A DNA stretch of 64,000 nt from Amoebophrya sp. A120 (lineage: Eukaryota; Protista; Dinoflagellata): the NCBI GenBank assembly GCA_905178155.1, contig CAJINV010000005.1, forward strand, positions 3,354,833 through 3,418,832. The letters run 5' to 3'. This document shows positions 5,901 to 22,882 of this stretch, piece by piece. The notes below the pieces were generated by a model. It did no database searches, had not been told where the DNA came from, and worked only from the letters and a program-made list of their open reading frames with translations. Positions within the stretch are counted from its first letter, which is position 1. Each line of letters opens with the position of its first letter. The position numbers and the translations under genes are program-made.

Positions 5901-8853
5901 GACGAGGCCTTCTTGTGGTATGAACTGCGCGCTGCAGCCATAGATTTACCAAAACGTCTAACAAGTTACGGCGTCAACTATCAACAGCAAAAGCAAAGCA
6001 TGGAAGAGCGCATCCGCGCCCAGTTTGCTACGCTGAGAGAGAAACGCCAGAAGTTCGCCATCCTGTCTGCCTTCGGCTGTGGGGCGTTCGGAAACCCTGC
6101 ATTGGATGTGGCGCAGCTCTATAAGAAGGTGATTGACGAAGAGCAAGCGAAAGACGCTTTCTTCCACGGCGGCGTCATCATCTTCGCAATTCTTCCTGAT
6201 CAAAACCCCTCAGTAAAAAACGAACTTATATTCGCGCAAGAGTTGCTCGGGGGTAAAAGCGCAACACCGGACAAGTTGGGAGATCCGTCAGCGCTGGCGG
6301 AAGCCCCGGCTCTAGGAATTGCAACTGCGCCTCCAGCAGTCATGGGTGGGGTTGCAGGCGAGCCAGACGGGCGAGAAAGTCTAACGTCGACCATGGAGCA
6401 CAATTGTGCTTCCGCGAAAGTACGGCAACGAAAAATACATTTTTCGAAGAAACTCTTTTTGCTTCCGCATATAATTTGAGGAGACTTCTTCAAAGGCATG
6501 CAATTATACCAATATGGCAGTCGCAGAATATAATGAATAGGCCAGCGTGAAGGTCTAGAGGCGGCTTACTAGTAGTTAAGTGAATAGTCTGAAGACAGAA
6601 GGAGCAGATGATCGGTCCCAGGAGCAGATACCCGAGGAATCCGTAACGCAGCGCGCCACTGGTGCTGCGCTGCCTATGTTCTGTCTTCAGACTAGCTATC
6701 TCGGAAAGCCTTTACAGATGTAGATGTTGTCTGCATGCATTGCCTTTTCGCCGCCAAATTTCTATCTACTTATTGCTATATGGTAACTGACCTGACCAAA
6801 AAAAACTGTTTTTTGAAAAATAAAGTATTTGCCATTTCCATAGTAAGGCGGATTGGTTTTAAAAAAGTGGAACCGGGCGTTTTAAGACAAAAATGGCGAA
6901 TCAGGAACACCGTCGTACCCCGGCTACGCCCCTCCGACAGGATGGAACATCCAAGCATCTTGCGATGACCTTGCGGGGGAAACGACCAAAAAGATGAACG
7001 GCGGCCACAAGTTCCGGGTGGATGTGTTGGTTGATACCTTGAGCAAGCTTAGCGAGGACAACGGGAGGCTGTTGCAGACGTACAGGGCAAACGCGGAAAG
7101 CAACATGAGAACGTGGGCAGAGGCAGCGAAGACAAGCGGTCGAAAGAAAGCTGAACACGCCAAAGTAGACATCGAAGTCATTGAAGGAGACTCGCTGTCA
7201 ACGGCACGGTACTTTACTGAGAAATACGGCGAAATATTCACTGTGTTGAACATGGCCAACGAACAATTTATCGCACGGAAATCTTTTACGATCATAGCAC
7301 GATTGTATGTGAGTACATCGAGGTTATGGGCGCAATGAACTGAGTATAGCAATAGCTATGAATATTACAAGGGCATATGAGATATAGTGATGTGCGTGTG
7401 ACTTTAATATTCGCAAAGTCTATCCTTCGTGTGGCCCTACGGTCGTACGCCCATCACTCTGCTTGGGGTCTTCACACTTTGATGGTAGTAAGTAGCGCCT
7501 TTTCGATCTTTCTCCGAAGTATTTTCAGAATCTCGCGCTGAGGCTGAGAATGAGATGCAAGTGGTCGTGCGTAAGATTTTCCGTGCGATAGCCTTCGTTG
7601 GAGGTATGGTAAAGTATGGCACTGCTGCGCAGGAAGAAAACATCTTTCGTCGCTCGGATTGCTTGGATTCGCTTCGGAATGATCAGGTGCAGCCAGGAGA
7701 CATGGACCGGTATAACGACAAAACCCGGAGCCGGATAAATGGCTCTCGTGGCAAGGTCTACTTGGACGATGAGCATCCTCGGGTGTGCGTCAAAGGACCG
7801 GAGGACATCAAGAATACTCCCGGCGGCCGCGTAGGCGGGTACGAGTGGTTGGGGCCCGACGAGACCTTCTTGTGGTACGAAATGCGCGCGGCTGCGAAGA
7901 GGTACAAGCCCAACGACCTCGATCCGTCGGCCCCTGACCCAAGCGAGTGGCAGCCCGAAGAGGCTAAGCAACGCATCCGGGCTCAATTCGCTACCTTGTC
8001 CTTGAAGGAAAAAAACAAAAAGTTCGTGATCCTGTCTGCCTTCGGGTGCGGAGCCTTCCACCATCCGGCTGACAAGGTTGCGCAGATCTACAAAGAGGTT
8101 ATTGCCGAGCAAGGCGATGCTTTCAATGGTGGGGCGCTCATTTTCGCGATTTTGCCGAGTGGAACGAAAAATCACAAGTTGTTTGCACAAGTGCTAACGC
8201 CTGACAATAAAGATCCAGTGGCATTGGAACAGCTGGAGCCGTTGTCCGGACCAGCAAAGCTTGCAAAGCCACCGACCCCGGAGAAGCCGAACCCTGCCCC
8301 AGGTACTACTGCGACACAGCGTCTGGAACCACCGCTTCCGGAACAACCGCTGCGGGTCCCCGCCAGGGACGGTAAGAACGGGGCAGTATTACCGCCGGCG
8401 CCAGGCGTGGTCTCCACAGCAGCAGCAGCAGCAGCAGCAGCAGCTGATGGAGCACAGCCTCCCCCTCCCGCCCCGAAGATGGGCCATGGCATCGCAACAC
8501 CACCCCCGGGCCCCCCGGGAGGTGCAGCACAGCCCCAGCCGCTAGGATCAACAGGCACAGCGTCATCAAGCGTTCCTCTGCAGGGACATCAAACCCCGAC
8601 TGCACCGACAACGCCGGCTACAGCACGACCTGCGGCAACACCGTATGCACCACCTGGAGGAGATCAACCGCCTGCAGCTGCACCAACTCATAAAATAAGC
8701 TGGCGCACCCCTGGGGAGCTGGTCGTGGTGGTGCCCCCGCCCCCGCCGACTTCCGCGGCAACACCACCACAACCTGCACGGGTGCGAGTGGGCAACCTCC
8801 GGGGAGCGACAACAACGACCACCGGCCCACCCTTTTCTTGTGCGGGCTGTTAG
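2988..8853 (+). CDS. Putative secreted protein with two tandem bacterial-type PARG (DUF2263/TIGR02452-like) macrodomains and a Pro/Ala-rich tail; multi-exon
   Basis: Exon 1 MWSHLLYAAKLSLLLPLLFLEAG looks like a signal peptide; link via a proposed GC-AG intron 3240-4052 is inferred. After removing introners, domain 1 reads VLNMANAERVGGGVKHGAAAQEENLFRRSDC...ILSAFGCGAFGNP and domain 2 reads VLNMAN(EQF)VGGMVKYGTAAQEENIFRRSDC...ILSAFGCGAFHHP. An in-frame TAA at 6883-6885 lies between the domains. Confidence 0.75.
4474..4760. mobile_element. TIR introner family A (287 bp)
   Basis: TATCAAATGTAAAAATGTCTGGGTCTG...CAGACCCGGACACTTTTGCAGTTGATA, TSD CGCGC. Removal rebuilds GAAAQEEN. Confidence 0.92.
4826..5087. 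mobile_element. TIR introner family A (262 bp)
   Basis: Family-A TIRs, perfect TSD AGTGG, body similar to 726-987 and 31335-31597. Frame restored (SDEVVPG). Confidence 0.92.
5160..5480. mobile_element. TIR introner family B (321 bp)
   Basis: TATTACAATGAAAAATGCCCCCTCCCCATATC...GATATGGGGTGGGGGCTTTTTTTACTTTGATA, TSD GCGGT. Removal rebuilds GAVYLD. Confidence 0.9.
5548..5866. mobile_element. Diverged family-A-like introner (319 bp)
   Basis: Degenerate TIR with CTGGGTC/GACCCAG core, flanks TCCTG/TCCCC. Removal gives DPLTLGYKWLPFDEAFLWYE, matching domain 2 (GYEWLGPDETFLWYE). Confidence 0.8.
6421..6842. mobile_element. Diverged TIR introner (422 bp)
   Basis: TACGGCAACGAAAAATACATTTTTCGAAGAAAC vs revcomp of right end TATGGAAATGGCAAATACTTTATTTTTCAAAAAAC; flanks GAAAG/GTAAG. 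Removal puts domain 1 in frame with domain 2. Confidence 0.7.
7269..7590. mobile_element. TIR introner (322 bp)
   Basis: TATCGCACGGAAATCTT...AAGATTTTCCGTGCGATA, diverged flanks CAATT/GCCTT. Removal gives NMAN-xxF-VGG with the same spacing as domain 1. Confidence 0.85.
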
Positions 8854-9548
8854 TTACTGAGACGAGTACCCCTTGTTGGAAACTACAGAGCGCTGCCTCT
8901 TTTTTATTGCAATTCCATTGCTATACCATTACCAATACCTATACGAGTACACGTATGATATTTTTTTTTGCCGCAAATTGAATGTTAGATTGATAATGTG
9001 TTGATCATACAGCAAAGTAAAGAAAGTAAAGAGATACGTAAAAAAACTTTTTTAAGATTACAAAAACATCGTGTGCCTTTGTAACATCTCTTCATTGCTT
9101 CCCAGGACTCTTGAATAACATGTAGAGCTCTGACAGTTTTCCCTCAGAAGAAATAATTTCACTATAGATCATAGTTCCATCGTTCTTGTTGACGCCTATT
9201 ATTTTGATACGAGGACATCTCCAATGCTGAGTCTGGTCCTAAATGTGTGACGCGGAGGTGTGAATCACTGGACAAAAATTCCGAAGAAAACTCGGACGTA
9301 ATGGATCCATCGCGTAGACGAAACTTGCGATGTATTGGATTGTTTTATGATCTTGTTCTTGGATTTGGTCTCGTCGTGTCTTTGGCGGTCCACAATAATG
9401 CAGTAGCTTGTGGACTCGTCTTCCTCCGTCCCTAATAATATGCAGGTTTGCTGGTCATTGATTCAAAATCAAAAGAAGGCCATGAATAAAATCATCATGA
9501 TTTGCATCGTTAGTCGCCTTCTCACACCGGATCCAGAGCGCTGAAGAA

Positions 9549-9693
9549 GAAGAGCTTTCTGTGTGTTGCTGTGCCACACGACTTCTTGATGTCGTTCTCA
9601 CGCTCGGAACCACAAAATACTATACACAACACAAGACCTGTCCGATCTTGGAGCGACGTGAAAAGTTTGAAGTCTTCGGTGATTTTGGTGTCC
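9549..9693 (+). repeat. Copy 2 of ~135-bp direct repeat
   Basis: Aligns by eye with 2226-2359 with small indels. Confidence 0.85.
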
Positions 9694-9938
9694 CTAGTTG
9701 TATTCTATTATTCCATGACACAGATTGATAGCCGCGGCGGAAACAGAATGCATTTGCGAGCGATCTTTTCGTGTACAGTGAGCATTTTTATTTAATCGAG
9801 AACGGAACAGGATCAAACCTGGACCATGTCGGAGTGGCGCCGAAACAATTTCACACGATGTTCGAGTGTACATCCGATGGAGAATAGAAAGATAGAAAAA
9901 TCAGAATAGACCACTCTCGAAGAGCGTGCACACCAACT

Positions 9939-11215
9939 CAGTTAGAGGGCAGCGGGGCCATTTCCTTTGCTAAAAAGTGGCTAAATTTTTCGGGATTTTT
10001 TCGAAGCGTGTCGGCCGAGGCGTTGCGTTAGCCTGACCGGCTGAGCCCCGCCCTCGCAAGTGGTGCGCCGCTTCCTTTGTCTGGCCCGCCTCGCCTGGTT
10101 TTGTTTCTTTCGGCGGGCCATAGGGGCGATGGGTTCGCTGTGTTGTCTGTTGCCGCCGGGTGTTTTGTATTTGCTAGCGGGCTATGTTTTGCAGTTTAGA
10201 CGTTCGCCCCGGTTTCTCTTGGGGTGTGGAGCCTTACAATTTTGGCACGTTTCCGCTTGGTGGTGCGCCGGGTATTTTGCGTCGCGCAAAGCATCCGGCA
10301 TCTCGGGCACGTGTTTGCAGGTGCTGCGCGCAACCTCTGGTCGGGCGTGTTTGGGTTTGTTTGTGTTGTCACCTCGAAAAGCCGCGGCGGGCGGTTTCTG
10401 TGGTGGTGCTCTGTGTCGCGCCGTGTGGCGTGTTATTTCTCTTCTTCAGGCGAAGACGGCCGCCGCCCCTTTTTTTTCCTTTGTGTTCGGCTGTGGAATT
10501 TTAGAAACCAAGACGCCCGGGTCCTTTCAAATTTGCGGAAATCAGCGCCCTTTCCCCGGCTAAATTTTTGGCTAAATCGGCTGACTTTTCTTTCCTTCCC
10601 GAAATCCCTGTGGTTCCGCATTTTGCCGCCGGCTAAATTCGGCATCGCCGGGATTTCCGAAGTGAATCCCGGAAAATTTAGCCAAGATTTAGCCGACCGA
10701 TTTAGCCGACCGATTTAGCCGCATAGATTTAGCCGACCGATTTAGCCGGCCGATTTAGCCGGCCGATTTAGCCGACCGATTTAGCCGGGATTTAGCCGCA
10801 TGATTTAGCCGGTCGCGGAAGTGTAGCAGGGAAATGCAGAAACCCGCTGCGGATGGGATGTGGGCCAGCCCATAGATATCCAGGACCCGCGCAGACTTTC
10901 GCCGGCCCCGGCTTCCGTTTGGGTTTTCTATCTTGGGCCCGAGGGTTTCCGTCTTCCGGTATTTCCTTTCCGGGTATATTTCTCATTGGGCATGGGGTTT
11001 CGCATGGTTCCGCGCGCGGTCCATTCGGGCCGCCACGCAACAATCGCAGGAAGCTCCTTGGGGTTTTTGCTTTCTTCTACCCGCGCCGCGCTGGCTTTCT
11101 CTTTTCTTCCGGCGGCAGCGCCGTCGGGGCCGCTTCTGCTTGCCCGGACTTTTAAAAAATCCCGAAAAAATTAGCCAAAAAATAGCGGGCGAAGTCGCCC
11201 CAAACCCTCCAACTG
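9939..11215. mobile_element. MITE-like non-autonomous DNA element (~1.28 kb)
   Basis: ~60-bp imperfect TIRs (CAGTTAGAGGG...TGGCTAAATTTTTCGGGATTTTT / AAAAATCCCGAAAAAATTAGCCA...CCCTCCAACTG). GC-rich non-coding interior with many GGCTAAAT/ATTTAGCC motifs. No TSD recognised. Confidence 0.65.
10676..10812 (+). repeat. Tandem array of ~13-bp units (ATTTAGCCGRCCG), about 11 ATTTAGCC cores
   Basis: Directly visible; the core is the same motif found in the TIRs of the enclosing element. Confidence 0.9.
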
Positions 11216-12069
11216 ATGTTTTCTTTTTTTTTCGATGGATTGAGTCAGAAGATTTTTGAGATTACATTTTGAAATCCATATCAATATATCCTATTCTGAA
11301 TTTGACAAGATTTTGGATTAAAATCTATAGGATATATCAATGAATTATTTTAATTTCAAAAAAAAAAATATTCGGTGAAATTCTTTCATTTCAAATATCG
11401 AATATGAAATCCGAAAAATTTTTTGGAAAAATATTCGGATAATTATCGATAAGATCCTGAATTTGGATGAATCTTCAATGATGGATTCATTTATCCTCGA
11501 TAGAAGATGAAAATGATGATAGAAAGAAAAGAGATAATCTCGGATCGGATCATAGAATATTCTTCTTATCTGAGATGATCTCATGAAATCGATACATGAT
11601 TTTTTTTTCAATATATATGGAAAATTACGAAAAATTCTTAGAGAAATAATTATGAAAATCATTCAAATTCTCTGCAAATTTCTTAAAAATTTCTAAAAAT
11701 TATCTATTCATTTCTGAAAATTTATGAAATGAAATCTATTAAATAAAAATTTTCAAAAATATTTTTTTTCGAAAAAAATGTCTATTTTCCATCAACAATC
11801 CAGATCTTGGGATCCAATTGATAATTTGGGATCTCGGATTATAAATTTTCGAAAATAAAAATTTGAATTTTTTTCCACAAAGAATCAGAAACAAAGACTT
11901 TCTAATTTTGAAAATTTAAAATAATATTTTCCAAAAAAAAAAGTGATCTGTTTAGATCTGATGAATTTCAATTTTGGAAAGAATATCTATGGGATATCAG
12001 ATATATGAATTCGATAATGATGAAGATTATTGTCAATAAGAGATTTAAAGCGATGGATCTATCTTTATA
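11216..12069. other. AT-rich, GpC/ApC/GpT-depleted island (left part; continues at 20165-20526 beyond the LINE)
   Basis: Hand count: 2 GC dinucleotides vs roughly 16 CG in 11221-12060, and none in 20165-20526. Confidence 0.85.
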
Positions 12070-12495
12070 TTATTATTATCGAAGCCCTACTGGGGTTTGT
12101 GCCCGAGGTGACCACAACGAATGTACGAGAGCGGAAGGTTTGGGCATTTTGCTAGAGTTTAGGCACCTTTCCTGGCTCAAGCGTTCAAGAAGTGTCCACC
12201 GTCTTTCTTTGCTTGTAGTCGCTTCCCGCAGCGCACTACGCTCGACGGTATCGGTTAGGTTCAAGCGCATAAAGTGTTTGGCACGCTCGTTTTGTTGCGA
12301 GCCCTACATTGATTCCCGGCNNNNNNNNNNNNNNNNNNNNNNNNNNNNNNNNNNNNNNNNNNNNNNNNNNNNNNNNNNNNNNNNNNNNNNNNNNNNNNNN
12401 NNNNNNNNNNNNNNNNNNNNGTGTAGGTTGGTTTCATTGTACGGAACATAAGCGCTCGCGCCGCGGACGCGGCGTTGCACGCCCTAGCGGGCCGT

Positions 12496-15400
12496 TTATT
12501 CGTGGGCATTGTGGGTGCCCAGTTCGGTCATGGATCTGTAGTCAGGGCGCTCTTGCCAGCCGTGGGGCCATGCGCGCTCTGATGTGAGGGGGAGCACCGC
12601 TGCGCACAGTCTCCCCATCTGCGTGATCCGGTCGCCGATTCCTGTGGGTTGATGTGTAGGGCCGGTGTCCCGGACGTACTGTCTCCAGCTTTCCAGCGCC
12701 TCGCATTCTTCGAGTATGTGGCCCGGTGTCAACGGGGTCCCGCAGTAGTCGCAGTGCAACTCGTTACCGAAGGATCTACTCTGACTTCCACTGACCGTGG
12801 ACAACCAGAGGCGTTGAACCAGCCTCGCGCCACGGAGATATTTGGTGACGCCCCAGACGAAGTCGCGCGACCAGTGTCTGGCCGCCCAGTCTCGCCCACT
12901 GATGCTCCTGGTTAGCCCCAGGGACAGGATCCCCACCTCTTCTTGTGCTTCTATTTCCCGCAATAGGAGCTGCTTCACCGCTGCGTGGGTGACGGGGAGG
13001 GACGGGAGTTCCCGCATGTCCACTATCCGGGCAGCAGGGGCCACGAGCCCCAGCAACGTATCTATGAACTCGTTGCCCGCGACGCCCGTATGGGCGTATA
13101 CGTGGGTGACGAGTGCTTCGGCTGCGGGGATGCGGTCCAGGGCGGTGAGGACCGTGCACAGTTGGGGTTCGAGCCGGTTTCCACTCGCCGCCGCGGTCAT
13201 CCACCCCCTGCAGTCCCCAACCAGTCTCGCACGGGTGGCGTGGACGCCCGCCAACTGCTGTGCCCCTACCTGGGCTCCCCCTGTTTCCCCGGGGTACGCG
13301 GACGGCCCGATGCCATACAGATGTATTTCCACCGCCTGTAGAGCGTTTTGCGCGAATAGAACCGAGCCCCCGAGGATGCGGCCGTGCCTGCGGCGGTCCC
13401 CATCTATGACCGCCCCCACGAGGGAACCATCACAGAAGGACACAGCTGCCCCCTGTTCAAGCTCTTGGCGGAAGCGGTCGTTCTGCCAGGCCGCGTCCGG
13501 TTGGGTCGCGTCCTCATCGAACGGCGCCGCCCAGCGCTCGTTCGCAGGCGCTGTGTTTGCATCCCTTGTCGGGTAGCTCTCGCCCGGGTTGATTTCCCAC
13601 CTGATCTCTCGGGAGAGGCGAGGTCGCGGGCTGTAGGCTTCGCGGTGGGCGTTGCTCACGCCGATGGCTTCCAAAACCCGGTGGGCTTGGTCACCCGCGC
13701 GTCTCCCGGCCCAGGTGGCGCGCTGGGTTTCGCGCAAGTCGATAGCGTTGTATTCCCACAGGGGGCGCCCTTCCACCCGGGTTGCACGGGTGCCGGTGTG
13801 GATCACATACCGCAGTACGAAGTTGCCACCTAGTGTTTGTGGCAGGCTGGGGAAGCGGCTGAGCGCCTCGACAACGTCTGCTCGGGATGGCAGGGTGTTG
13901 CACCGCCATGGCGCGGACCCACGCGCCCCCGGCGCGCCTGCTTCTGCTGCGATGCCACTTTGTAATGCCGTGGTGGCCGGGAGTGCTTGGCCTTCGCGCG
14001 CGAACCTATCGAACCAGAGCGCCACCTCGATGGTTGCCAGGGTGTGCGCGTTGAACAGGCACGCGGAGGCCAGGAGGACTTCTATCCGGGTGTGTTGTAG
14101 GGCCCCCGTGATGAGTCGCGCGCCCTTATGTAGGATGCGCGTGTCAAGCCGCTTCATCGCCTGCTCGGGGAGGTAGGGCCCCAGCACCGAGAGTGTGAAC
14201 CGAACGAGGGAACCCACAAGCCCGAGGTATAGTGCGCGCAGAGTCACGGTGTCAGCTTTGTGCCGGTACCTCCTTATGAGTGCGAGGCGCTTGGTGCTCT
14301 TGTCCACCAGTTTGTCGCAGTGGTCAGCGAAGCACCCGTCCTCGTCAAAATGGATGCCGAGGAGGCGCCCTTGGGTGACCTGGCGGTAGGGTAGCGGGGG
14401 GAAGCGGCGCTCCGCCCCCGGTTCTGGTTGGCCTTCTGCTTCGGCGCCCGCGTCATCGACGTACTCGTCTGTAAGTACGTCGAAACAGAAGCGCGCGCGT
14501 ACTGTCTTGCGGTGGAGCTCTTTGGAGCGGCGGTAGAGCGTTTCACCCGGGTTAAGTGGGCGGAATGCCAGTGCCCATGACTTCCCGACCTCTACTTCTG
14601 CCCCGTTTTGGTTTGCCCACTCTGTGACGACCTCATGGAAGACATGCGCGGTGGCCGCCGCTGCCTCTTCCGTCGCTGCGCGAATGAGGCAGCTTGTGTC
14701 GTCCGCATACATCCCCGGAAGTGCTCCACGTGGGTTGAGGGCGTGGCGGAGTTTCCGGGCAAGCGGGATCGTGAACACAAGCCAGAGGAAGGGCGAGAGG
14801 ACTCCCCCTTGGGGAAGTCCTCCCGCTATGGGAAACGGGGCCCCGAGGTGTCCGTCTACCCTCACACGGATGGTTCTCCCTGCGAGCCACTGTCGAATCC
14901 AGTCGACCAACCAGGGTGGGCAACCTTCCTCCTTGAGGATTTGCAGGAGGCGCGCGTGTGGGACTCTGTCATAGGCCTGGGCGATGTCGATGCTCAACAG
15001 GAGCACCACCTCCTCTGCAGAGAGGCCCTCCGCGATGCCGTCGCAAATCGCGGCCAGTAACGATTGCACGGAGCGCCCCGGTGCAAAGCCACACTGCAAA
15101 TCGACGGGCGTAATGAATTCCATCAGCCGTCGAAGAACTACCGCTTCGGCTAATTTCAGGAGGCTCGACGATAGTGCAATTGGCCTGTACGAGTCCGGCG
15201 CTGTTGGCACTTTTCCTCCTTTCAACAGTGGGCACACGATGATCTGTCTCAGGCCTTCCGGGACCGCCGGTTGGCGATCACAGATGCTGAGGGAGACGAA
15301 CTTGTGCAGCGCCTCCAGGGGCAGGCGGCGGAGGATTTCGACGGTCAGGCCGTCAGCGCCCGGGGCGCGGTTCAGGGACAGTGCCCGGAGGGCCGTGCTG

Positions 15401-16611
15401 ACCTCTTCCTGCGACACGGCAGGCGCGGGGCTGGCGTCCCGGAAGTCGGCCGCGGTCCGGCGCGTGTTTGGGTCGCGGTTGCGCATCCTGTGCGCGTAAA
15501 CTTTTCCGAAGAGCGTGGCCCGGCGCCGGGCAGACTCGACCCAGCGCCCGTTTTCTTCGTCCCACAGCCGTGAGGTTGGGGGTGTCGGCGCCCCCCCTCG
15601 GTCCGGGTCGATGCTGAACAGCAGACGCCACCACCCGACGTCGCTGGTGTTCCACCGGGGTGCCCCGGCCGCCTGGTTAGGTGCTACCTGTTTGTAGGCG
15701 CCCTGTTCGCTCGCGGCCTGCTCGACTGCTCCCTGGATGGCCGCAACGGCTTCCGCGGCCGTGCCCCACTCCGAAGGAGCCAGGCTCAGCTCGCTGAGGT
15801 CGAGGCTGTCGAGGTCCAACATGCGCGCCCATGTGGCCTGCCGCGGAGCGGCCCAGGTGAGGTGCTCGACCTTGAGGCTGTGGTGGTTGCTCGCGCTTTT
15901 TCGCACCACTTTCGCCTGGGGCCAGTCGGCTGCTTCCTCGACCCAGTATGGCAGGCTTTGCCCGGGGCTGTTCGCCACCTCATCGGCAGCCGGCCAACTT
16001 ATCCAGTACATGCGGTCGGGGCATGTACCGGCCGCGGGGTACGTCGCCCGGCGGGTGGAGTTGAGCCGCTGGAGTGTGAACTCGCCGGCATCGAGCTGCT
16101 CTATCCCACCGATGTTGTCCCCGTACAGGAGCGCGCCGACGACCCCCGGCGTGGCCTTGAAGAAGGCGCGAACCCTGGCCCAGCTCGAGAGCAGTGATTC
16201 GGCTGGGGTTGCGTACCAGGCCGCAGTCAGGGTGGGCACTGATAGCTCAACCGCTTCACCTGGGTCGGTGGCTGAGGTAGGCAGGAACACGATGCCCGCC
16301 GCGATCTCTTGGCGGGGGCCAAGCGCGGGCGCTTGCAGTGGCCGCGCCGGGATCGAGTGGTGGACTGTTATCATGGCCCCGCCGGCCCGGTTCGGCGCTT
16401 CGGGTGTTGTTGGTCTGTCGGTGCGCGCGAGCACCGGTAGTCTGGCGGGCAGGGGATTCGGGTCCTCTGGCGCCAGGTGGGTTTCTACGTAGAAGTTGAC
16501 GCCGTGGCGCTCCCCTCCCGGTAGGCTCCGCGGGTATTTCTGCTGAACCCGCGCGAGCCCATCAACGTTGGCGCGTCGCCAAGCGGCGCGGCAAGATGTC
16601 ACTAATCCCAA
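12496..16611 (-). CDS. LINE ORF2: divergent AP endonuclease, reverse transcriptase, RNase H, C-terminal CCHC finger
   Basis: RT motifs APGADG, YRPIAL, QCGF, DIAQAYDRV, GLPQGGVLSP, YADD. RNase H motifs FCDGS, GDC, HVYAHTGVAGNEFID. Finger CDYC...HILEEC. APE-like VETH, GDN, SNHH. Confidence 0.93.
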   Translation of the reverse strand: MGLVTSCRAAWRRANVDGLARVQQKYPRSLPGGERHGVNFYVETHLAPEDPNPLPARLPVLARTDRPTTPEAPNRAGGAMITVHHSIPARPLQAPALGPRQEIAAGIVFLPTSATDPGEAVELSVPTLTAAWYATPAESLLSSWARVRAFFKATPGVVGALLYGDNIGGIEQLDAGEFTLQRLNSTRRATYPAAGTCPDRMYWISWPAADEVANSPGQSLPYWVEEAADWPQAKVVRKSASNHHSLKVEHLTWAAPRQATWARMLDLDSLDLSELSLAPSEWGTAAEAVAAIQGAVEQAASEQGAYKQVAPNQAAGAPRWNTSDVGWWRLLFSIDPDRGGAPTPPTSRLWDEENGRWVESARRRATLFGKVYAHRMRNRDPNTRRTAADFRDASPAPAVSQEEVSTALRALSLNRAPGADGLTVEILRRLPLEALHKFVSLSICDRQPAVPEGLRQIIVCPLLKGGKVPTAPDSYRPIALSSSLLKLAEAVVLRRLMEFITPVDLQCGFAPGRSVQSLLAAICDGIAEGLSAEEVVLLLSIDIAQAYDRVPHARLLQILKEEGCPPWLVDWIRQWLAGRTIRVRVDGHLGAPFPIAGGLPQGGVLSPFLWLVFTIPLARKLRHALNPRGALPGMYADDTSCLIRAATEEAAAATAHVFHEVVTEWANQNGAEVEVGKSWALAFRPLNPGETLYRRSKELHRKTVRARFCFDVLTDEYVDDAGAEAEGQPEPGAERRFPPLPYRQVTQGRLLGIHFDEDGCFADHCDKLVDKSTKRLALIRRYRHKADTVTLRALYLGLVGSLVRFTLSVLGPYLPEQAMKRLDTRILHKGARLITGALQHTRIEVLLASACLFNAHTLATIEVALWFDRFAREGQALPATTALQSGIAAEAGAPGARGSAPWRCNTLPSRADVVEALSRFPSLPQTLGGNFVLRYVIHTGTRATRVEGRPLWEYNAIDLRETQRATWAGRRAGDQAHRVLEAIGVSNAHREAYSPRPRLSREIRWEINPGESYPTRDANTAPANERWAAPFDEDATQPDAAWQNDRFRQELEQGAAVSFCDGSLVGAVIDGDRRRHGRILGGSVLFAQNALQAVEIHLYGIGPSAYPGETGGAQVGAQQLAGVHATRARLVGDCRGWMTAAASGNRLEPQLCTVLTALDRIPAAEALVTHVYAHTGVAGNEFIDTLLGLVAPAARIVDMRELPSLPVTHAAVKQLLLREIEAQEEVGILSLGLTRSISGRDWAARHWSRDFVWGVTKYLRGARLVQRLWLSTVSGSQSRSFGNELHCDYCGTPLTPGHILEECEALESWRQYVRDTGPTHQPTGIGDRITQMGRLCAAVLPLTSERAWPHGWQERPDYRSMTELGTHNAHE

Positions 16612-17238
16612 GCCCCTGGGCGGGAGGGGTTCCCGGGGTGCCCTGTTGCCGTGGCAGCGGGGTGGTGGCCCGACGCCGGGGCGTACCGGTCCACGCCAGT
16701 GCGCCCGCCGGGTGCGGGGCCCGCCTTCCGAGACAGGGCGGCGCGCATGCTTGCGGTGCGCGCGGCGTTGTTTGCCATGGCCGTGGCGTGGGCCATGGTC
16801 GTCCGCCGCCGAGCCCGGCGGCGGCGCGCTAAATCCCTACCCGGCCCCGTCCTACCGACCGGCTTCTGTCGCTTGATCCGCGCATGCTATGGCGCTGGGG
16901 CGATTTTCGGGGACTAACTCCGCCGGTGCTATGGGCCCGATTTGCCTGTTTCCAGGTCAGGAAAAATGGCCAGACGCTAGTTTTAGCCCGGCGGGATTGA
17001 GACCTCTTCGACCGGTTTTGGGCTCGGGGCCGCCGTCCGCCCGGGGGAAGAAGCGGCCCCCACCGTAACCCCGAACGCGGGAGGCAGGCTCGTTGCCCGA
17101 ATCGTGGGCCTTGTGGGTGGGCTCTGGCCGGTCAGTCCCACGTCTGCGTGGTCCGGGAGGGTGGGTGGGTGGGAGGGTGGGTGGGGTTTGGGGTGTTGAC
17201 ATCTTGCTGTACTGTCGAATCGATACCCATCCTTCTAG

Positions 17239-19494
17239 TCAGATCTGGGTTGGCACCATGGTGCCCGCCCCAACTTCAGTTCTGGCGTTGTCTGCTGGAG
17301 CGCTAGTGGAATCTGCATTGCCACCGGCCTTCGCAGGTGGGGTTTGCTCTTCGCTGTCACTCAGAAGCAGTATGTTCTCGACCCGAGGGCCTCGCGCCTT
17401 GGCGACGTGCGCCTGCTGCTGTCCGGCCGGCGCCTGCGGCGCCGGACGCGCCGCCGGTTTGGCAGCGGCCTTTCCCGGGGCGTCCTGGCTGTTCTGCTGC
17501 GACGAGCGGCCGCCGCGTTTCGGCACCGCGTGATACTTGGCAGGGGGGCCACCTCCTGGTGGGCCCGCCTCGCCCGGATCGTACCGTGCCGGTTTGAGGC
17601 TACCCGGGCCGGCGAGAACGCCGTAATTTTCCCCATTCACCACTACTTGCACGGCCGGATGCCCCGCGGCCGGGGCGGAGTGGCAGGCGTTGTAATGCGC
17701 GGCTATATGGGTTAAAAATTGGGACGGAAACCTGTTATTGACCTCCTTGCCGCATTCGCATTTTAATCGGGGGCGGGTGGAATCAATACAGTCGTATCCT
17801 TGGCGGGTGGGGTGCCATTCCCGCGCCGGGAGGGGAAAAATTTCGGGGCGGGGAGTGGTCTTCAGGTGCAGGGTTGCGGTAGCGGTTCCCGGCTTTGCCG
17901 ATTTCCGATACGGCATTTGGTGCGACCTCAACAACTCTCTCTCGACCGCTTGGCAAGCTTCGGCCGTCTGGAAGACCGGGCGGAGGTCACCCGGTCCAGT
18001 GGCGTATTCCTCTTGGATCTGAGCCCCCGTGCGCATGAGCTTAATCGCGCTGCCAAGGCTCAATACGCCGAAGAAATCGTCTGCCAGGCGGAGAATCGCC
18101 GTGTGGCTTTCCCCGGGGCCCTGCGGGCTGAAAATGAAGCCAAGATGGTCTTGGCTCCGTTTCACGAGTCGGTGATCGGGGAGGGGCGTGTTGGCAATGT
18201 AGGCGCCAAATTGCGGCCCGATGTCCATCAGCTCCTCCACCGAAACGACATCTTGCTCCGCCTTCGACCGGAGATGTTCCGTCCGCTCATCTCCCAGTTG
18301 GAGGATGTTTGCAAGGACATCTATTTGGCAGCTCCGATAGTGAGTAAGGTTGGCCGCTTTTTGGCTGGCCCGTAGCAGGCTTCTGCCCGTTGCGTCCAGC
18401 TGTCGGCCGCTTCCCGGGACCGGGGCGCCCGGGTCTCCGGGGTCGGGCCCTTTCCCTTTCTTTCCCGGGCCCTTGGTTTTGCCGCGGCCCTTCTGCGCGG
18501 TGTTATCCGGGGGGAAGTACTGGCCCCCAAGGGGGTCGGCGTCGCGCGCTGCGGGCGCGCCTTCCCTGTTGCTGTCCGCCTCTGCGTGGGCCCGTCGCGA
18601 GGTTTCCCGCCGCGACTTCTCCACCCCGGCGCGATGCTTCTGCAGGCAATCCTTGACCATGTTGCCGGAAGCAACGGCGCCGAACTTTTCCCGCAGCTGC
18701 GTCCGGATCTCCGCGATGGAGCCCCGCACCCGTTCCGGGGCGCCCTCCTCGTGCGGCAGCTGCTGAAGGCAGGCCAGGACCATGCTCCGCAGCTTGTCCC
18801 GCGCGCGCGGGTCCAGCTCTGCCACCGGCTGGACGCTCGGCGAGCTTGTGCCCTCGGATTTTTCCGCGCGCTGTGCATCTGCCGCGCGCCCCTGCGCTTT
18901 CGCGGTCGTGGGCTTGCCGCCCTTCCCCTCGCCGGGGGCTGCGGCGTTCTCGCCTTTGCCCGGCTTCCCTTTGGGCTTTCCACCTTTCCCTTTCCGCCAG
19001 TGCCATTGCTGGTCGTACCAGGCATCCCAATCAACATCGTCTTCTCCCCACCACCAGTCCACAGCAGCAGCGCGTTCTGTGGTCTGGGAGTCGGTAGTTT
19101 TCTTCCCTGCCCGTTTGCTAGCAGAGGTGCTCGCAACCGGGGGTGGGACGTCACTTTCGGCGTCTTCCTGTGTGCCCGCGCCCCGGGTTCTCTTCCGGTC
19201 TTGTGCTGTAGACAGAACGCTACTTCGCTCTCGTTTCCCGACCGGAGATGGAGCTTGCGCCGGCTGAGGAGGATACCCCGGAGGTGGAACTGGTGGGGGG
19301 AACGGGGGTGGGCCCGATGGCGCTGGGGGGGCAGGTGGTGGTGGTGCGTTGTAGCCCGGGTACCCATACTGCGGGTAGGGGGGGTACGGCGTCCCGTACG
19401 GCGGGGGAGGGTACGGCGGTTGTTGTGGTGGTGGTGCACCATAATAGTATCCCGGAGGCGGGGGTGCTGCGGGATACGGGTGGTAGCCGTACAT
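17239..19494 (-). CDS. LINE ORF1 (Pro/Tyr-rich N-terminus, basic region, C2H2-like finger)
   Basis: 751-aa ORF upstream of ORF2 on the same strand, within the TSD-bounded element. Motif CECG...FLTHIAAH. Confidence 0.8.
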   Translation of the reverse strand: MYGYHPYPAAPPPPGYYYGAPPPQQPPYPPPPYGTPYPPYPQYGYPGYNAPPPPAPPAPSGPPPFPPPVPPPGYPPQPAQAPSPVGKRERSSVLSTAQDRKRTRGAGTQEDAESDVPPPVASTSASKRAGKKTTDSQTTERAAAVDWWWGEDDVDWDAWYDQQWHWRKGKGGKPKGKPGKGENAAAPGEGKGGKPTTAKAQGRAADAQRAEKSEGTSSPSVQPVAELDPRARDKLRSMVLACLQQLPHEEGAPERVRGSIAEIRTQLREKFGAVASGNMVKDCLQKHRAGVEKSRRETSRRAHAEADSNREGAPAARDADPLGGQYFPPDNTAQKGRGKTKGPGKKGKGPDPGDPGAPVPGSGRQLDATGRSLLRASQKAANLTHYRSCQIDVLANILQLGDERTEHLRSKAEQDVVSVEELMDIGPQFGAYIANTPLPDHRLVKRSQDHLGFIFSPQGPGESHTAILRLADDFFGVLSLGSAIKLMRTGAQIQEEYATGPGDLRPVFQTAEACQAVERELLRSHQMPYRKSAKPGTATATLHLKTTPRPEIFPLPAREWHPTRQGYDCIDSTRPRLKCECGKEVNNRFPSQFLTHIAAHYNACHSAPAAGHPAVQVVVNGENYGVLAGPGSLKPARYDPGEAGPPGGGPPAKYHAVPKRGGRSSQQNSQDAPGKAAAKPAARPAPQAPAGQQQAHVAKARGPRVENILLLSDSEEQTPPAKAGGNADSTSAPADNARTEVGAGTMVPTQI

Positions 19495-20900
19495 TGTGTC
19501 TGGGCTTGTAGCCGGGGTGTGTTGCTTTTACAGTTGTCAAAGGTAGTGCTAGTGTTGCTCGCAGTGCAAGGAATAGGCTGGTGAGTAGTGCAAAGGTTGT
19601 CGCGTGGGGATAATGTCGATAGCAATACGCACAAGTGGAGGGCAGTTAGTAAGCGTTATCGTGCAGGAGCAAGTAATGTAATACAGTAGGTCGGAAGTGT
19701 CATAATTGAGAGTGGGTGTTGCAGTATGAGTGGTGGTACTGTGGCAGGATGAGTAGTAGGCTGTGACATTGTATATTGCGGACGAGCACGACAAAACAAG
19801 AATACTTCCTAGCCCCTAAAGTACTCTTGCCTACTTGGGTACACACACAATAGACATCCGACCGACCTATCTCTGCTGTTGAGTGCAGGCACAGACGCTT
19901 TCGACTCCGGTTTGCACGATATCGCGAGAGGTACGACAATAGCACGACAGGTACGATCTACATGTTGTACGATTAGGTGCGCTCTGGCACAGCGCACTTG
20001 CACCGACGGACGCGCGATCGTTGTACCGAGCTTGTGTTCCTTCTGGGCGAACAGAGCACCGGCATTCTAATAACTGTAGCTGATTTGGTGTCAGGCTGCT
20101 CCTACCGCGTGAGGTGGTGGCACCTCACCGCAGGATCTCCTCAGGCGTGGGCCTTCATCGGAGGGGATCTATCTTTATAAGATGAAATAGAAGACTCTTA
20201 TAAATGAAATCAATGAGATTTTGATTTCAAATTCCCCATTGATTCGATTAAAGGATATTCATCGAAAAATTTTCATGATCAAAATAATTCATCCATTTGA
20301 TGGGAGGGATTTTCATTCTTATGTGTTGGATGTGTTGGTATGTTTCATTCGGAACAGACAACAACAGATGATAAGGATATGGAGTTATTCTTTCGTTCTC
20401 ATTTGTAGTGTTTTTCATTTTCTTTGGTTATGGGAAAATCTTCGGAATAGAGAAACCACTCATCATGTAGGAAACAAACATTTTGGAAAATTCGAAAGTT
20501 AGTCAAAATCAATGTTATCGTTACCGGCACACGATAAGACTTTTTAGAGCATTGATTTAGAATTAGAGCGCGTGTTCCGGATCCGGTCGGGTGAGGTCCA
20601 GGATTATGTCAGTATGCATAGGAAATTGCTTCAATAATTCATTTCGTGTCAATATTCAAGAGAAATCTATCTGTGTCCATGTTGTGGCCGTCATTCATTT
20701 TTCTTGTTGCATGTCTTACTGGGGCGGTCATGAAAAATGTGAGCCGTCCCTTCCTGAATTCTGATCAGAAGCATGACCACAATTGCATTCGACGTCAACA
20801 TCTCATCATCGTAAAAATGTCGATTGGAGACCACCATTCATGAGATCGATTCTATCAAACAGTAAGTGCGAGGACCACTGACACCACAGAACAAGATCTC

Positions 20901-21854
20901 TCAACCCATACACAAAATCGCAAAATCTTCAAACTCGAAGCCCGGGCACACCGTGCAGCCAACGAGCGCCCAGTTGACGGAGGCGGTGCCGCTTTGCTGT
21001 TCTACTGGAGGACCATCAGCGGCCAGCATCCTGCTGCCAAAAATTTTTCCCGCCTTGACCGTGTGCTGTATTTTCTCCCCGTGCAGAATGTTCTTTCCTA
21101 GTCTTGTGATCGATACAGCATTCAATTTGCTGTTTTCTCTACCGCAATCCGGATCGATCTCCACGATTTCCAAAGTTCCGCCGGCGTAGTGATATATCCT
21201 GTGGAAACACGTAACTACGTATACGCCCTGGGGTTTGTCGAGACAAATCCCTGAAGTTTTCAGCATCTGCACCACGCATGATAGATAAAGATAATGAGGA
21301 ATTCGGACATATTTTATTATTATGCATTCTAGTCGTTCTTCTTCTTACGCTTCGCTTGCAGAGGACGCGTCAGACACCCACTCCACTGCCTCAACATCCG
21401 AATCAGCCCGTGACCAGTTTTTTTCGTTCTTCTTCATGAGCACGGCAAGAAAATCATACCGCCTGTTGTGGAAACCTGCATGCGACCACACGCTATCTCT
21501 AGCGGTATGCGAATTTGGACTTATTACAACTCTGGGGCGTCGTGCGGTATTTACGTTTTTGCACAGGATATGGTGCCAAACTTCGTCATTCCCGTTGGTC
21601 AAAACGTGCAAATGCGAGCGGTCATTTTTTCCGAGGAGGAAATAAATCGCCGTGCCGCAGACCACCTGCTTGTCGCTCGTTCCGCTCCTAGACGAAACAC
21701 TGCTCCGCCAGGTTTCCTTGAAAAAGCCACCTTCTGGGTGGGGAAGGAGTTCGAGGTGTTTTGCGACCTCCTCTTTGGTCAGCGACTCCAGGTCGATCTT
21801 GGTAGTATTTCGGACGAGGTGATTTTCACTTAAACCGTCTGTAGTCGACATCAT
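20901..21854 (-). CDS. Cupin superfamily protein (DUF985/Cupin_5), two exons
   Basis: Motifs LLPHPEGGFFKETWRS, TAIYFLL, EVWHHYAG (after removing 21195-21570) and LVGCTVCPGFEFEDF. Confidence 0.9.
21195..21570. mobile_element. TIR introner (376 bp) in cupin gene
   Basis: TATCCTGTGGAAACACGTAA...TTACGTTTTTGCACAGGATA, flanks TGATA/TGGTG. Frame restored. Confidence 0.85.
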
Positions 21855-22882
21855 CAATCTCTTGAATATCAATAAGTTCAGGTTACTGATTTATTGCAAG
21901 AGGACGACAAGCAAAGCTCAGGCGGGGGGAGGGTGCGATAACTACGGAAGATCAAAGCAACGAGAAAATGAACCCCGGCAGAACTACTTTCTACAACTTC
22001 TATCCGGCCATACTACTACACACAGACTCACAGGCCGTCATGGCGAAGAAGTCAAAAGCCACAAGTCGTGCCGACTTCGTACTTCGTCAGTTGCAACTGA
22101 AGTTGATGCTATTTCACTTGATAGATTTTTTGATGTCGTTATACATTCAGAATGTTCGAGCTCCCGAGATTGAGATTCTTGGAACTGCTCCTTGGCATTG
22201 GCATTGTTTGAAAAAAAACAATGGAACTGCAAACGAACGACGAAAAAGGACACGATTTACGAGAGCTGAGGCGAGCTGTGGCCGCCTGCACGACGAGCTC
22301 TCGTCGCTCTCTCTCAGTTCTCCCAAGCAACTCTACTTTACTTATCTGGTGTATATATTTTTTCTTCACAATGAAGAGGCTCCTCTGCACGACAATCGCG
22401 GCACGACCCAGGAATAGATCAACAAAAAGGTCCGAACATGTGTTTTTTCGGTGGAGTTAGCAACTTGACGCTGGCTGCTCGCTGTGCCTGTGTCTTCGAT
22501 AATTTTCAACATCCGCTTTTATATTTCTTCCCGCCCATAGCCATAGCCATAATTTTCATCCGAGTTTGTTCACTATCATAATTTTTCCCCGCCCTGCGGC
22601 CTTCGTTGTGACTTCTGTACAACAGGGACCGAAAATATCCCTTGTAAAAACTTCCACCAGATGAAACTACAAAAATCATCCATGGACAAAGAATTCGTCC
22701 GAAACGGAAACGCTATAAGTGCTTTTGGTACAACGGTCGACGCCTTTGTCCGCCAAGAATCGCAGCTCTTACTACAATTTTCCTTTCGCACCACAAGGAG
22801 GAGCTGCTAGAAGAGCGACAGCACTTGCTACTTGCACTTCACGATCTTCATATATTCAATTTATCTTCATCGGACTCAGATT

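Follow-up and report, generated by a model that had tools for sequence, protein, structure and literature searches.

Organization of the locus

The window, a stretch of 64,000 nucleotides from a contig of Amoebophrya sp. A120, carries an AT-rich island that sits between a host gene on the plus strand and a host gene on the minus strand, which end head-on. The features around it are as follows.

3033-9302, plus strand: left host gene, multi-exon, with microbial-type PARG domains (PF10021; eight joints in RNA-like contigs; codon model)
9100-9937: left flank past the inverted-repeat element; 44% GC, GpC slightly low (32 against 40.2, P about 0.05)
9938-11216: multi-copy element bounded by terminal inverted repeats and holding a 13-bp tandem array (the MITE of the preliminary description)
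11217-12069: left part of the island core, purine-C-depleted, 24% GC; the left LINE target-site duplication falls within it
12055-12069, plus strand: LINE target-site duplication, left copy, 15 bp
12070-20164, minus strand: full-length non-LTR retrotransposon (LINE), 64% GC, with a short (ATA)n 3′ tail
12321-12420: assembly gap of 100 N inside the LINE
12496-16836, minus strand: LINE ORF2, 1,446 codons, stop-free (reverse transcriptase PF00078, E 8.9e-26)
17239-19527, minus strand: candidate LINE ORF1, 762 codons, stop-free, no Pfam match
20165-20179, plus strand: LINE target-site duplication, right copy, 15 bp
20180-20323: right part of the island core, past the LINE (change point 20323)
20246-22075, minus strand: right host gene of the cupin (DUF985) family, three exons seen (PF06172, spliced joints, joined reading frame)
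20324-20526: island shoulder, GpC-free with normal ApC/GpT, within the cupin gene's 3′ untranslated region

The last ORF of the left gene stops at 8853, and spliced contigs extend to 9302. PF10021 is matched on the plus strand in two of its ORFs, one exceeding the curated cut-off and the other falling short of it, and all four coding segments are placed on that strand by the codon model. It is the only gene in view on this side, too little to show a whole plus-strand block. In the cupin gene, PF06172 is matched on the minus strand in two ORFs (E 4e-17 and 2e-16), and RNA-like contigs give the joints 20648/20912 and 21189/21571. Its stop codon lies at 20565-20563 and spliced contigs reach 20246 and 20278, the spliced 3′ exon holding the GpC-only shoulder of the island. 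Over the 43 kb to the right of the island, 24 of 26 coding segments are on the minus strand according to the codon model, which was trained on ten ORFs from this window and has Pfam as an independent check. All Pfam matches there are on the minus strand as well (cupin and RING above the cut-off, aminotransferase and EamA below it). The preliminary description had missed this head-on gene context.

The insertion within the island is identified as a non-LTR retrotransposon by its reverse transcriptase ORF, target duplication and simple-repeat 3′ tail, with no LTRs; endonuclease and RNase H domains in ORF2 are predicted from the Pfam labels of its relatives. Open ORFs, a perfect target duplication and normal GpC (observed/expected 1.03) bear out the late arrival of the LINE that had been proposed. 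The inverted-repeat element adjoins the left edge of the island, has loose contig ends at 9938 and 11216 and shows a depth of 100-400 compared with about 40; no target duplication was seen, and its three ORFs have no Pfam match. Compared with their other copies, neither the LINE nor the inverted-repeat element shows purine-C-directed loss: a purine precedes 9 of the 18 sites where the window's copy has A/T, a count drawn from 40 of 59 listed differences and unpolarised.

Could the island be an assembly error or a contaminant? The 100-N gap lies 250 bp from it, and the DNA-like runs that cover it possibly represent the assembly's own sample, so that they are not independent support. In these runs, a 911-bp contig spans 11187-12097 and a second contig spans 17191-21500, each with no differences, thereby joining the inverted-repeat element, island and LINE tail on one side and the LINE, island and host gene on the other at single-copy depth. 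Spliced contigs cover the right shoulder, and another assembly has a second island. An artefact is largely refuted and scarcely credible. Depth over the left part is 38 against 42-44 in the flanks in run X1 and 15 against 21-28 in run X2; the island is therefore single copy. No second copy was found in the window or in 133 loci sharing this genome's introner, and the less-mutated paralogues suggested as a search target yielded no ancestral copy among these loci.

Composition of the island and of a second one

With the LINE removed, the joined tract (11217-12069 plus 20180-20526; 1,200 bp, 26% GC) contains two GpC, at 11674 and 12050, against 19.7 ± 3.9 in 5,000 mononucleotide shuffles (minimum 8), and 42 ApC+GpT against 115 ± 8.4 (minimum 86), with a CpG observed/expected ratio of 1.19. 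Change-point analysis, also with the LINE removed, places the core at 11223-20323 with step-like edges. In this core the C is preceded by a purine at 19 of 240 C/G sites, compared with 184 of 397 on the left side and 192 of 428 on the right, and GC is 24%, compared with 51% in the right-hand 43 kb and 42-43% in head-on gaps that have no island. In the shoulder no GpC occurs where 5.5 are expected (P about 0.001, with the boundary picked post hoc), whereas ApC+GpT is ordinary (25 against 23.1). The near-absence of GpC, the retention of CpG and the recovery of ApC/GpT before GpC on the right, all stated in the preliminary description, are thus confirmed.

With C or T as the 5′ neighbour, the proportion C/(C+T) is 0.36-0.38 in the window island and in the second island described below, against 0.34 in AT-rich controls; with A as the neighbour it is 0.05-0.07 in both against 0.41. 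Pyrimidine-C is therefore at control level and purine-C is mostly lost, symmetrically on both strands, in line with the local purine-C-specific loss previously suggested. This is not a property of AT-rich DNA in general, since GpC observed/expected is 1.20 in 97 control windows below 40% GC, and it differs, as had been claimed, from ordinary CpG decay; decay by CpG methylation is rejected, with CpG at 1.24 in the window core and 0.80 in the second island (only seven sites) and CpA at 1.06 and 1.11, respectively. Like steps (purine-purine plus pyrimidine-pyrimidine) make up 62% of the island and 48-53% of controls; TpA observed/expected is 0.50 and TpC is near 2. Runs of at least five A/T occur at 14-18 per kb in the islands against 5-7 in island-free gaps. 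Stop counts are at shuffle level, and the island is non-coding.

The 133 introner-sharing loci (634 kb, non-redundant) belong to the species of the window or to one very close to it: of ten ORFs tested, two group with A120 proteins in clustering, and introner copies are up to 98.8% identical. They hold one further island, L060:12972-13592, with 22 of 177 purine-C sites. It too lies at a head-on junction, with an Nramp gene on the plus strand before it and then four of four coding segments on the minus strand (Pfam; codon model). In its shoulder GpC is 6 against 11.2 expected, so that in both islands GpC is the first to go at the shoulders. In dinucleotide make-up the two islands are 0.15 apart, and the nearest of 2,363 other windows lies at 0.47; no extended homology was found between them, the best match being 43 bp, which 2-4% of Markov shuffles equal. 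Insertions split or flank both islands, the L060 island apparently being split by one. Head-on gaps occupy about 7 kb of the 634 kb, which by our estimate gives a chance of about 1-2% that the L060 island would fall in one; all tests but that of this placement were made post hoc. Two head-on gaps, L058:9360-11870 and L071:2050-3265, have no island (GpC observed/expected 1.53 and 1.26), their strands being called from ORF length and the codon model, with no Pfam match above the cut-off to back them, and the junction at L034 was excluded, being an inverted duplicate with its join at an introner. Islands, two in number, are therefore present at two of four usable head-on junctions, or at one of three when the window is left aside.

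Proposed mutation spectrum and origin of the island

Simulated purine-C loss in which C>T makes up 25-50% and C>A the remainder fits both islands best (G 8-37). Pure C>T gives G 27-151 and is the worst of five mixtures in 18 of 18 fits, those with A/T runs collapsed included. These fits are single-seed, grid-based and dependent on the starting DNA, with residual misfit left, and the mutations are deduced from composition, no ancestral copy being present among the 133 loci. Among 89 singleton substitutions in introner copies there is no purine-C preference (C>T at 3 of 429 sites after A, 4 of 777 after G and 12 of 740 after T), which indicates that the purine-C loss is local.

The preliminary description had proposed C-to-T hypermutation at purine-C, RIP-like or driven by methylation or deamination, for which deamination of GpC-methylated cytosine or an AID-type deaminase would be candidates. 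Such change does yield the missing GpC and ApC, the retained CpG and the high TpC, but transitions leave like steps at 48-53% and would lift TpA to 0.9-1.06, in conflict with both observed values as well as with the simulations, and C-to-T as the sole change is very improbable. RIP acts on duplicated DNA in filamentous fungi by transitions, typically at the expense of CpA and to the gain of TpA. The island resembles its products in being an AT-rich, C-poor tract with neighbour-dependent C loss; unlike them, it occurs once, next to repeats that are unaffected, and it keeps its CpA and is low in TpA. RIP is rejected on these grounds, its restriction to transitions being refuted by simulation alone. 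The AID motif is WRC, yet W is not favoured at position −2: of the 46 purine-C sites that survive, 30 are preceded by A or T and 16 by C or G, about the share given by composition, which speaks against an AID-type scar.

We favour, at what we would call an even chance, the explanation that the island is a local mutational footprint at a boundary of transcription convergence, a sharper and context-specific form of the GC dip known from Symbiodinium. Cytosines with a 5′ purine, GpC first and ApC second, would have given way over long times to T and to A, about equally often, in the stretch in which polymerases arriving from either side stop. The cause might be chemical damage to transiently exposed single strands or, with about equal weight, a cytosine mark placed there by an enzyme. 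Junctions with no island would be younger or minor, and the AT-rich, gene-free tract would later have given the LINE a target. We base this on the plus-strand PARG gene and minus-strand cupin gene that flank the window island, the placement, improbable by chance, of the L060 island at a second head-on junction, the signature shared without extended homology, the local loss specific to C after a purine, the better fit of mixed C>T/C>A simulations, and the precedents of the Symbiodinium dip and the acetaldehyde gCn>gAn signature discussed below. Counting against it are the head-on gaps at L058 and L071 with no signature, the step-like core edges, which also suit an inserted or selected element, the LINE and inverted-repeat element with no purine-C-directed loss, the single gene to the left of the window island and the sample of two islands. 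Moreover, DNA caught between converging polymerases is expected to become overwound, which makes strand opening less likely. The peroxide signature of single-stranded DNA in yeast, too, is reported as Cca rather than purine-C (PMC6527239). A tentative and rather unlikely extension is that a dedicated Amoebophrya enzyme marks or edits purine-C, GpC above ApC, where blocks converge; it would be a cytosine-based counterpart of kinetoplastid base J that sets termination or chromosome-domain boundaries, and the mark would gradually have erased its own target sites.

The main rival to a convergence footprint, unlikely but to be taken seriously, is a small AT-rich regional centromere with its own mutation mode under centromeric chromatin, attractive to transposons and gene-free, hence its position between converging genes. 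Small AT-rich centromeres are known from diatoms, Plasmodium and some yeasts, and the tract is AT-rich, single-copy and non-coding, both islands are split or flanked by insertions, and only some head-on junctions have one. However, the probability of exactly one island in 634 kb is 0.10 for 20 centromeres and 0.21 for 50, against 0.28-0.36 if one is carried by each of about 233 convergent block junctions or by a third of them (20 and 233 being our estimates from 50 scaffolds and 516 blocks), a likelihood ratio against centromeres of only 1.3-3.7. Further, the islands share no repeat beyond the 43-bp match, a spliced host 3′ exon enters the shoulder, and the label by itself leaves the purine-C context unexplained. 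No description of an Amoebophrya centromere was found in the literature searched, and no robust centromeric H3 clade has been identified in dinoflagellates (PMC4751559).

Alternatively, the island could be a cis-element under selection, serving as a terminator or chromatin boundary, with its composition kept to stop polymerases or to exclude a protein or mark. Two non-homologous islands with nearly equal composition, sharp edges and frequent A/T tracts would suit this, as would base J and 5-hydroxymethyluracil, which are reported at kinetoplastid and often at dinoflagellate boundaries, respectively (PMC11071213). It seems improbable to us, given that an 8-kb LINE splits the window island and an insertion apparently splits that of L060, that two head-on gaps manage without one, that the dinucleotide order is no less stable than in shuffles (−1.14 against −1.13 kcal/mol per step), and that ApC and CpA stack almost equally, yet only ApC is lost. 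The step-like edges might instead mark a foreign AT-rich remnant (virus, Maverick/Polinton, organelle or bacterium) that already lacked purine-C and has persisted at convergent junctions as a harmless landing site, and Mavericks are reported at about 11% of Breviolum boundaries (PMC11071213). This origin, raised in the preliminary description, gained no positive support and has little probability. The fewest stops in any frame number 14 against 18 in shuffles for the window (11% of shuffles as low) and 8 against 10 for L060 (22% as low), the longest ORF is 105 codons in the joined core (shuffle mean 70) and 54 in L060 (69), and no terminal repeats of the island's own were seen. There was no match in the collections searched, namely Rfam, 50,697 phage records and 72,556 plasmid records. 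GpC loss continues into the host 3′ exon, and decay sufficient to lose ORFs should have restored purine-C.

Relation to known systems

What marks the ends of the one-way gene blocks of dinoflagellates, and why does GC dip there? With a sharp purine-C signature, a vague dip becomes countable by a short script in any assembly, and the chemistry indicated is a specific one, C loss after G or A with transversions. If the islands occur once per chromosome, they would be the first centromere candidates for Amoebophrya in the literature searched; if a dedicated enzyme is involved, they would be sequence-readable marks of boundaries or centromeres, neither of which is known to have been mapped in this lineage. 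Near-complete purine-C loss on both strands, limited to 1 kb, is not described in the literature searched.

Small AT-rich regional centromeres share with the islands the 1-kb scale, AT-richness, non-coding character and unique sequence. Among damage signatures, that of acetaldehyde in yeast single-stranded DNA is reported as gCn>gAn (PMC9303387), likewise cytosine-centred with a 5′-G preference and C>A; the yeast peroxide signature is rich in C>T, and gCg occurs only in the mitochondrial signature, as gCg>gTg in aged mitochondrial DNA (PMC6527239). Those signatures are scattered and induced, in yeast reporters or human samples, whereas the island loss is near-complete, heritable, on both strands, fixed to 1 kb and inclusive of ApC.

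5-Hydroxymethyluracil marks gene-array boundaries in dinoflagellates and base J those in kinetoplastids, and in Breviolum the former is reported to have no sequence preference (PMC11071213, PMC11572971; the main texts of both make no mention of Amoebophrya). The islands, known from sequence alone, are similarly tied to gene-array boundaries and to only some of them. Those marks, however, are on T, and the islands affect C or its paired G in a fixed 5′-purine context.

In Symbiodinium microadriaticum, GC is reported to dip by about 6-10% over kilobases at convergent block boundaries, which are Hi-C domain boundaries, and not at divergent sites; Nand et al. (2021) considered that the boundary is possibly encoded in sequence, and their main text contains no dinucleotide analysis (PMC8110479). 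Both organisms belong to the dinoflagellate lineage and show lower GC at convergence, in genomes of co-oriented gene blocks, of which the window shows that on the right of the island. Unlike the averaged dip of Symbiodinium, the Amoebophrya core is sharp, 0.6-1 kb long, of 24-29% GC, purine-C-specific and found at two of four junctions.

Composition and limits of the island

The core of the island, an AT-rich tract in which C hardly ever follows a purine, is located at 11217–12069 and 20180–20323, with a LINE between the two parts. In the 1,200 bp made up of 11217–12069 and 20180–20526 (26% GC, LINE taken out), only 2 GpC were found against 19.7 ± 3.9 expected from 5,000 shuffles (minimum 8), ApC and GpT together numbered 42 against 115 expected (shuffle minimum 86), and CpG was retained at 1.19 of expectation. 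The scarcity of GpC and the persistence of CpG had both been claimed in the preliminary description, and the counts uphold them. The best model by BIC has two change points; purine-C (C with a 5′ A or G, counted on both strands) occurs at 19 of the 240 C/G sites within 11223–20323, LINE removed, and a 5′ purine is present at 46% and 45% of the C/G sites outside. The loss is strand-symmetric, with 9 ApC and 7 GpT in the core. The earlier observation that ApC and GpT recover before GpC was reproduced: in the shoulder, the margin of about 200 bp beyond the core (20324–20526), there are 0 GpC against 5.5 expected and 25 ApC+GpT against 23.1.

Misassembly, which would have refuted the earlier claim, was checked with contigs of two DNA-like runs, which come from one sample and may be the assembly's own data; they span both island edges with 0 differences and at single-copy depth. 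This depth also rules out an organelle-like high copy number.

Genes and inserted elements around the island

Features flanking or dividing the island
3033–9302, + strand: multi-exon host gene with PARG-type domains; 8 joints in RNA-like contigs, reaching 9302
9938–11216: multi-copy inverted-repeat element, 1.28 kb, abutting the island's left edge, with a 13-bp unit about 10 times inside
12070–20164, − strand: non-LTR retrotransposon (LINE), 8.1 kb, with a 15-bp target duplication at its two ends
20648 to 20246 or 20278, − strand: last exon of a cupin gene right of the island, from spliced contigs; stop at 20563–20565

Since the spliced last exon of the cupin gene extends past the stop, the shoulder is host 3′ untranslated sequence. 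Farther right, 24 of the 26 coding segments are on the − strand; with a + gene on the left, the island thus lies at a head-on junction, the left side having one gene in view, so that no full + block is visible. An aminotransferase exon in the window is 100% identical to an Amoebophrya sp. A120 protein. The RNA-like contigs come from four runs of one study on two samples, "RNA" being a guessed type, with spliced joints present; they give no cover at about 9,670–11,670 and little across the LINE, and this absence is not taken as evidence. Two raw-read RNA runs gave 2 and 1 reads over the window and are uninformative. The gene at 3033–9302 apparently encodes several PARG domains of microbial type in tandem, with a tail rich in proline and alanine behind them, and non-canonical ends occur in most of the 8 introns detected. 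Just two + calls fall in the block on the right, at 47100–48000 and 56100–56800; both come from GC-rich stretches (61–72%) that are probably inserted elements.

The reverse transcriptase of the LINE has distant relatives only (23–34% identity). Its last 250 bp (from 12070) show a bin depth of 200–330 versus about 40 in the body, and its 3′ end also occurs in RNA-like contigs with another flank, again ending in a T/A-rich motif, which suggests that short copies are numerous and that T/A-rich targets are preferred. Next to these 250 bp is a 100-N gap, and one contig joins 12140 to 12421; therefore the LINE 3′ end may be mis-sized. The inverted-repeat element, called a MITE in the preliminary description, has no target duplication at the window's copy, and none of its three ORFs has a Pfam match; its insertion may have removed the left shoulder of the island. 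As described earlier, the island's composition is absent from both elements: neither shows purine-C loss relative to its own other copies, which fits recent arrival and also gives no sign of the process still being active. Inverted-repeat elements of about 250 bp are also present in the window. A 500-codon ORF on the − strand (52677–54179) has a translation resembling the C-terminal portion of another non-LTR retrotransposon, with only a weak unrelated hit in Pfam. A 145-bp sequence occurs at 9549–9693, within the island's left flank, and at 2226–2359; the two copies are 85% identical and their differences have no direction.

A second island and the kind of sequence change

A metagenome collection was scanned with the introner pattern of Amoebophrya, yielding at least 133 loci (634 kb non-redundant, about 50 of the 133 under 1 kb) from 136 of an estimated 340 or so stretches; being centred on introners, they are not a random sample. 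The pattern had no match in viral_contigs. Of the ten ORFs tested, two group with A120 proteins, and introner copies are up to 98.8% identical, from which we take the loci to belong to the same species or one closely related to it. A second island, the sole one among the loci listed, lies at L060:12972–13592 (29% GC, purine-C 22/177; also represented by L100 and L101), and a weaker patch at L060:14233–14659 (36/133) is found past an apparent insertion. An Nramp gene on the + strand precedes it and all four coding segments after it are on the − strand; as head-on gaps make up about 1% of sampled bases, this placement is unlikely by chance. The dinucleotide vectors of the two islands are 0.15 apart, the nearest of 2,363 other windows being at 0.47, and their only shared sequence is a 43-bp match, attained by 2–4% of Markov shuffles. 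Against a simple rule, the head-on gaps in L058 and L071 are island-free, with normal GpC and 42–43% GC. In the middle of the latter, a 100-bp dip (L071:2901–3000, 35% GC, purine-C share 0.31) may be due to chance or represent an early stage.

When proteins of 288–2,000 residues were searched with the L060 Nramp exon, none from Amoebophrya was recovered, and no tRNA was found in L060. The stretch of normal composition that splits the second island is bracketed by two direct repeats of about 50 bp (L060:13590–13650 and 14450–14510), diverged from each other and both ending in (AAAG)n. A junction in L034 was excluded because it is an inverted duplicate: the same gene start is on both strands (4352–5635 and 11933–16003), with orientations meeting at an introner, which points to an inverted duplication or else to a misjoin at this repeat. 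The low purine-C of L042:15101–15400 (same place as L043) was rejected as a tandem repeat inside an introner, where an 11-bp purine-rich array has expanded (15101–15300). Two marginal windows in L036 (purine-C share 0.28–0.29, 48–64% GC) were left aside.

Following C or T, the ratio C/(C+T) stands at 0.36–0.38 in both cores versus 0.34 in 97 AT-rich control windows, whereas it is 0.05–0.07 versus 0.41 after A and 0.14–0.20 (very few sites) versus 0.44 after G. Pure C-to-T change, proposed in the preliminary description, cannot alter the purine/pyrimidine pattern and raises TpA; the cores, in contrast, have 62% like steps (48–53% in controls) and TpA at 0.50–0.52. Three kinds of starting DNA were used in simulations, which are rough composition fits with mutations inferred rather than observed; 25–50% C>T plus 50–75% C>A fitted best, and of five mixtures pure C>T ranked last in 18 of 18 settings (with or without A/T-run collapse, context-free rates). 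The less-mutated paralogue sought since the first description did not appear: with purine-C converted in silico to T, or to A, in all loci and the window, searches with both islands gave no ancestral copy, the best score being 50 bits versus 51 and 60 for complement-only controls. The background, read from singleton changes in introner copies (89 changes, 29 copies, two families), shows no purine-C preference, so the island process looks local. By the tests made, the RIP-like origin suggested earlier is rejected, and so are CpG decay and an AID-type WRC scar.

Origin of the island and known boundaries

We give about an even chance to the island being a mutational footprint at a point of transcription convergence. 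Polymerases from both sides would stop in a narrow zone, where both strands would be exposed or marked alike; C after G would be lost first, then C after A, to T and A, until few remain, the reach of the loss being limited by coding sequence and distance. The agent might be a cytosine mark laid by an enzyme, and methyltransferase by-products can lead to C>T as well as C>A. It might instead be chemical damage to single strands, against which the overwinding between converging polymerases counts. In single-stranded DNA of yeast, acetaldehyde is reported to cause gCn>gAn (PMC9303387); the changes reported for peroxide are mostly C>T, with a yeast motif that is not purine-C (PMC6527239).

The island, which we regard as real and replicated once, is possibly, if doubtfully, a small centromere; island density, one in 634 kb among the loci listed, favours junctions by 1.3–3.7 only. 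One study of dinoflagellates reports that it could identify no robust clade of centromeric H3 (PMC4751559). A selected terminator or boundary element is unlikely, easy melting having been rejected as the selected trait. Foreign DNA is quite unlikely, the window having no Rfam match within 8,500–22,000. A pure C>T hypermutation scar, with its uniformly worst simulation fit, is very improbable, and an artefact is scarcely credible given the bridged edges and single-copy depth.

The dip of GC at convergent sites is already known. In the literature searched, mostly outside subscription journals and excluding supplements, no sharp 0.6–1 kb loss of purine-C on both strands at convergent sites is described; the supplements of PMC7789003 and PMC8110479 may hold relevant composition plots. 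A120 is reported to have 98.5% of its genes in co-oriented blocks, 516 of them, distributed over 50 scaffolds that add up to 115.5 Mb (PMC7789003), the main text making no mention of centromere, methylation or strand. In Symbiodinium microadriaticum, GC is reported to be about 10% lower at sites of convergence, which coincide with Hi-C boundaries, and not at divergent ones (PMC8110479). Boundaries in Breviolum are described as often, not always, enriched in 5-hmU without sequence preference, which the authors liken to base J (PMC11071213; also PMC11572971). The island is like a dinoflagellate convergent boundary in its position and its GC dip.
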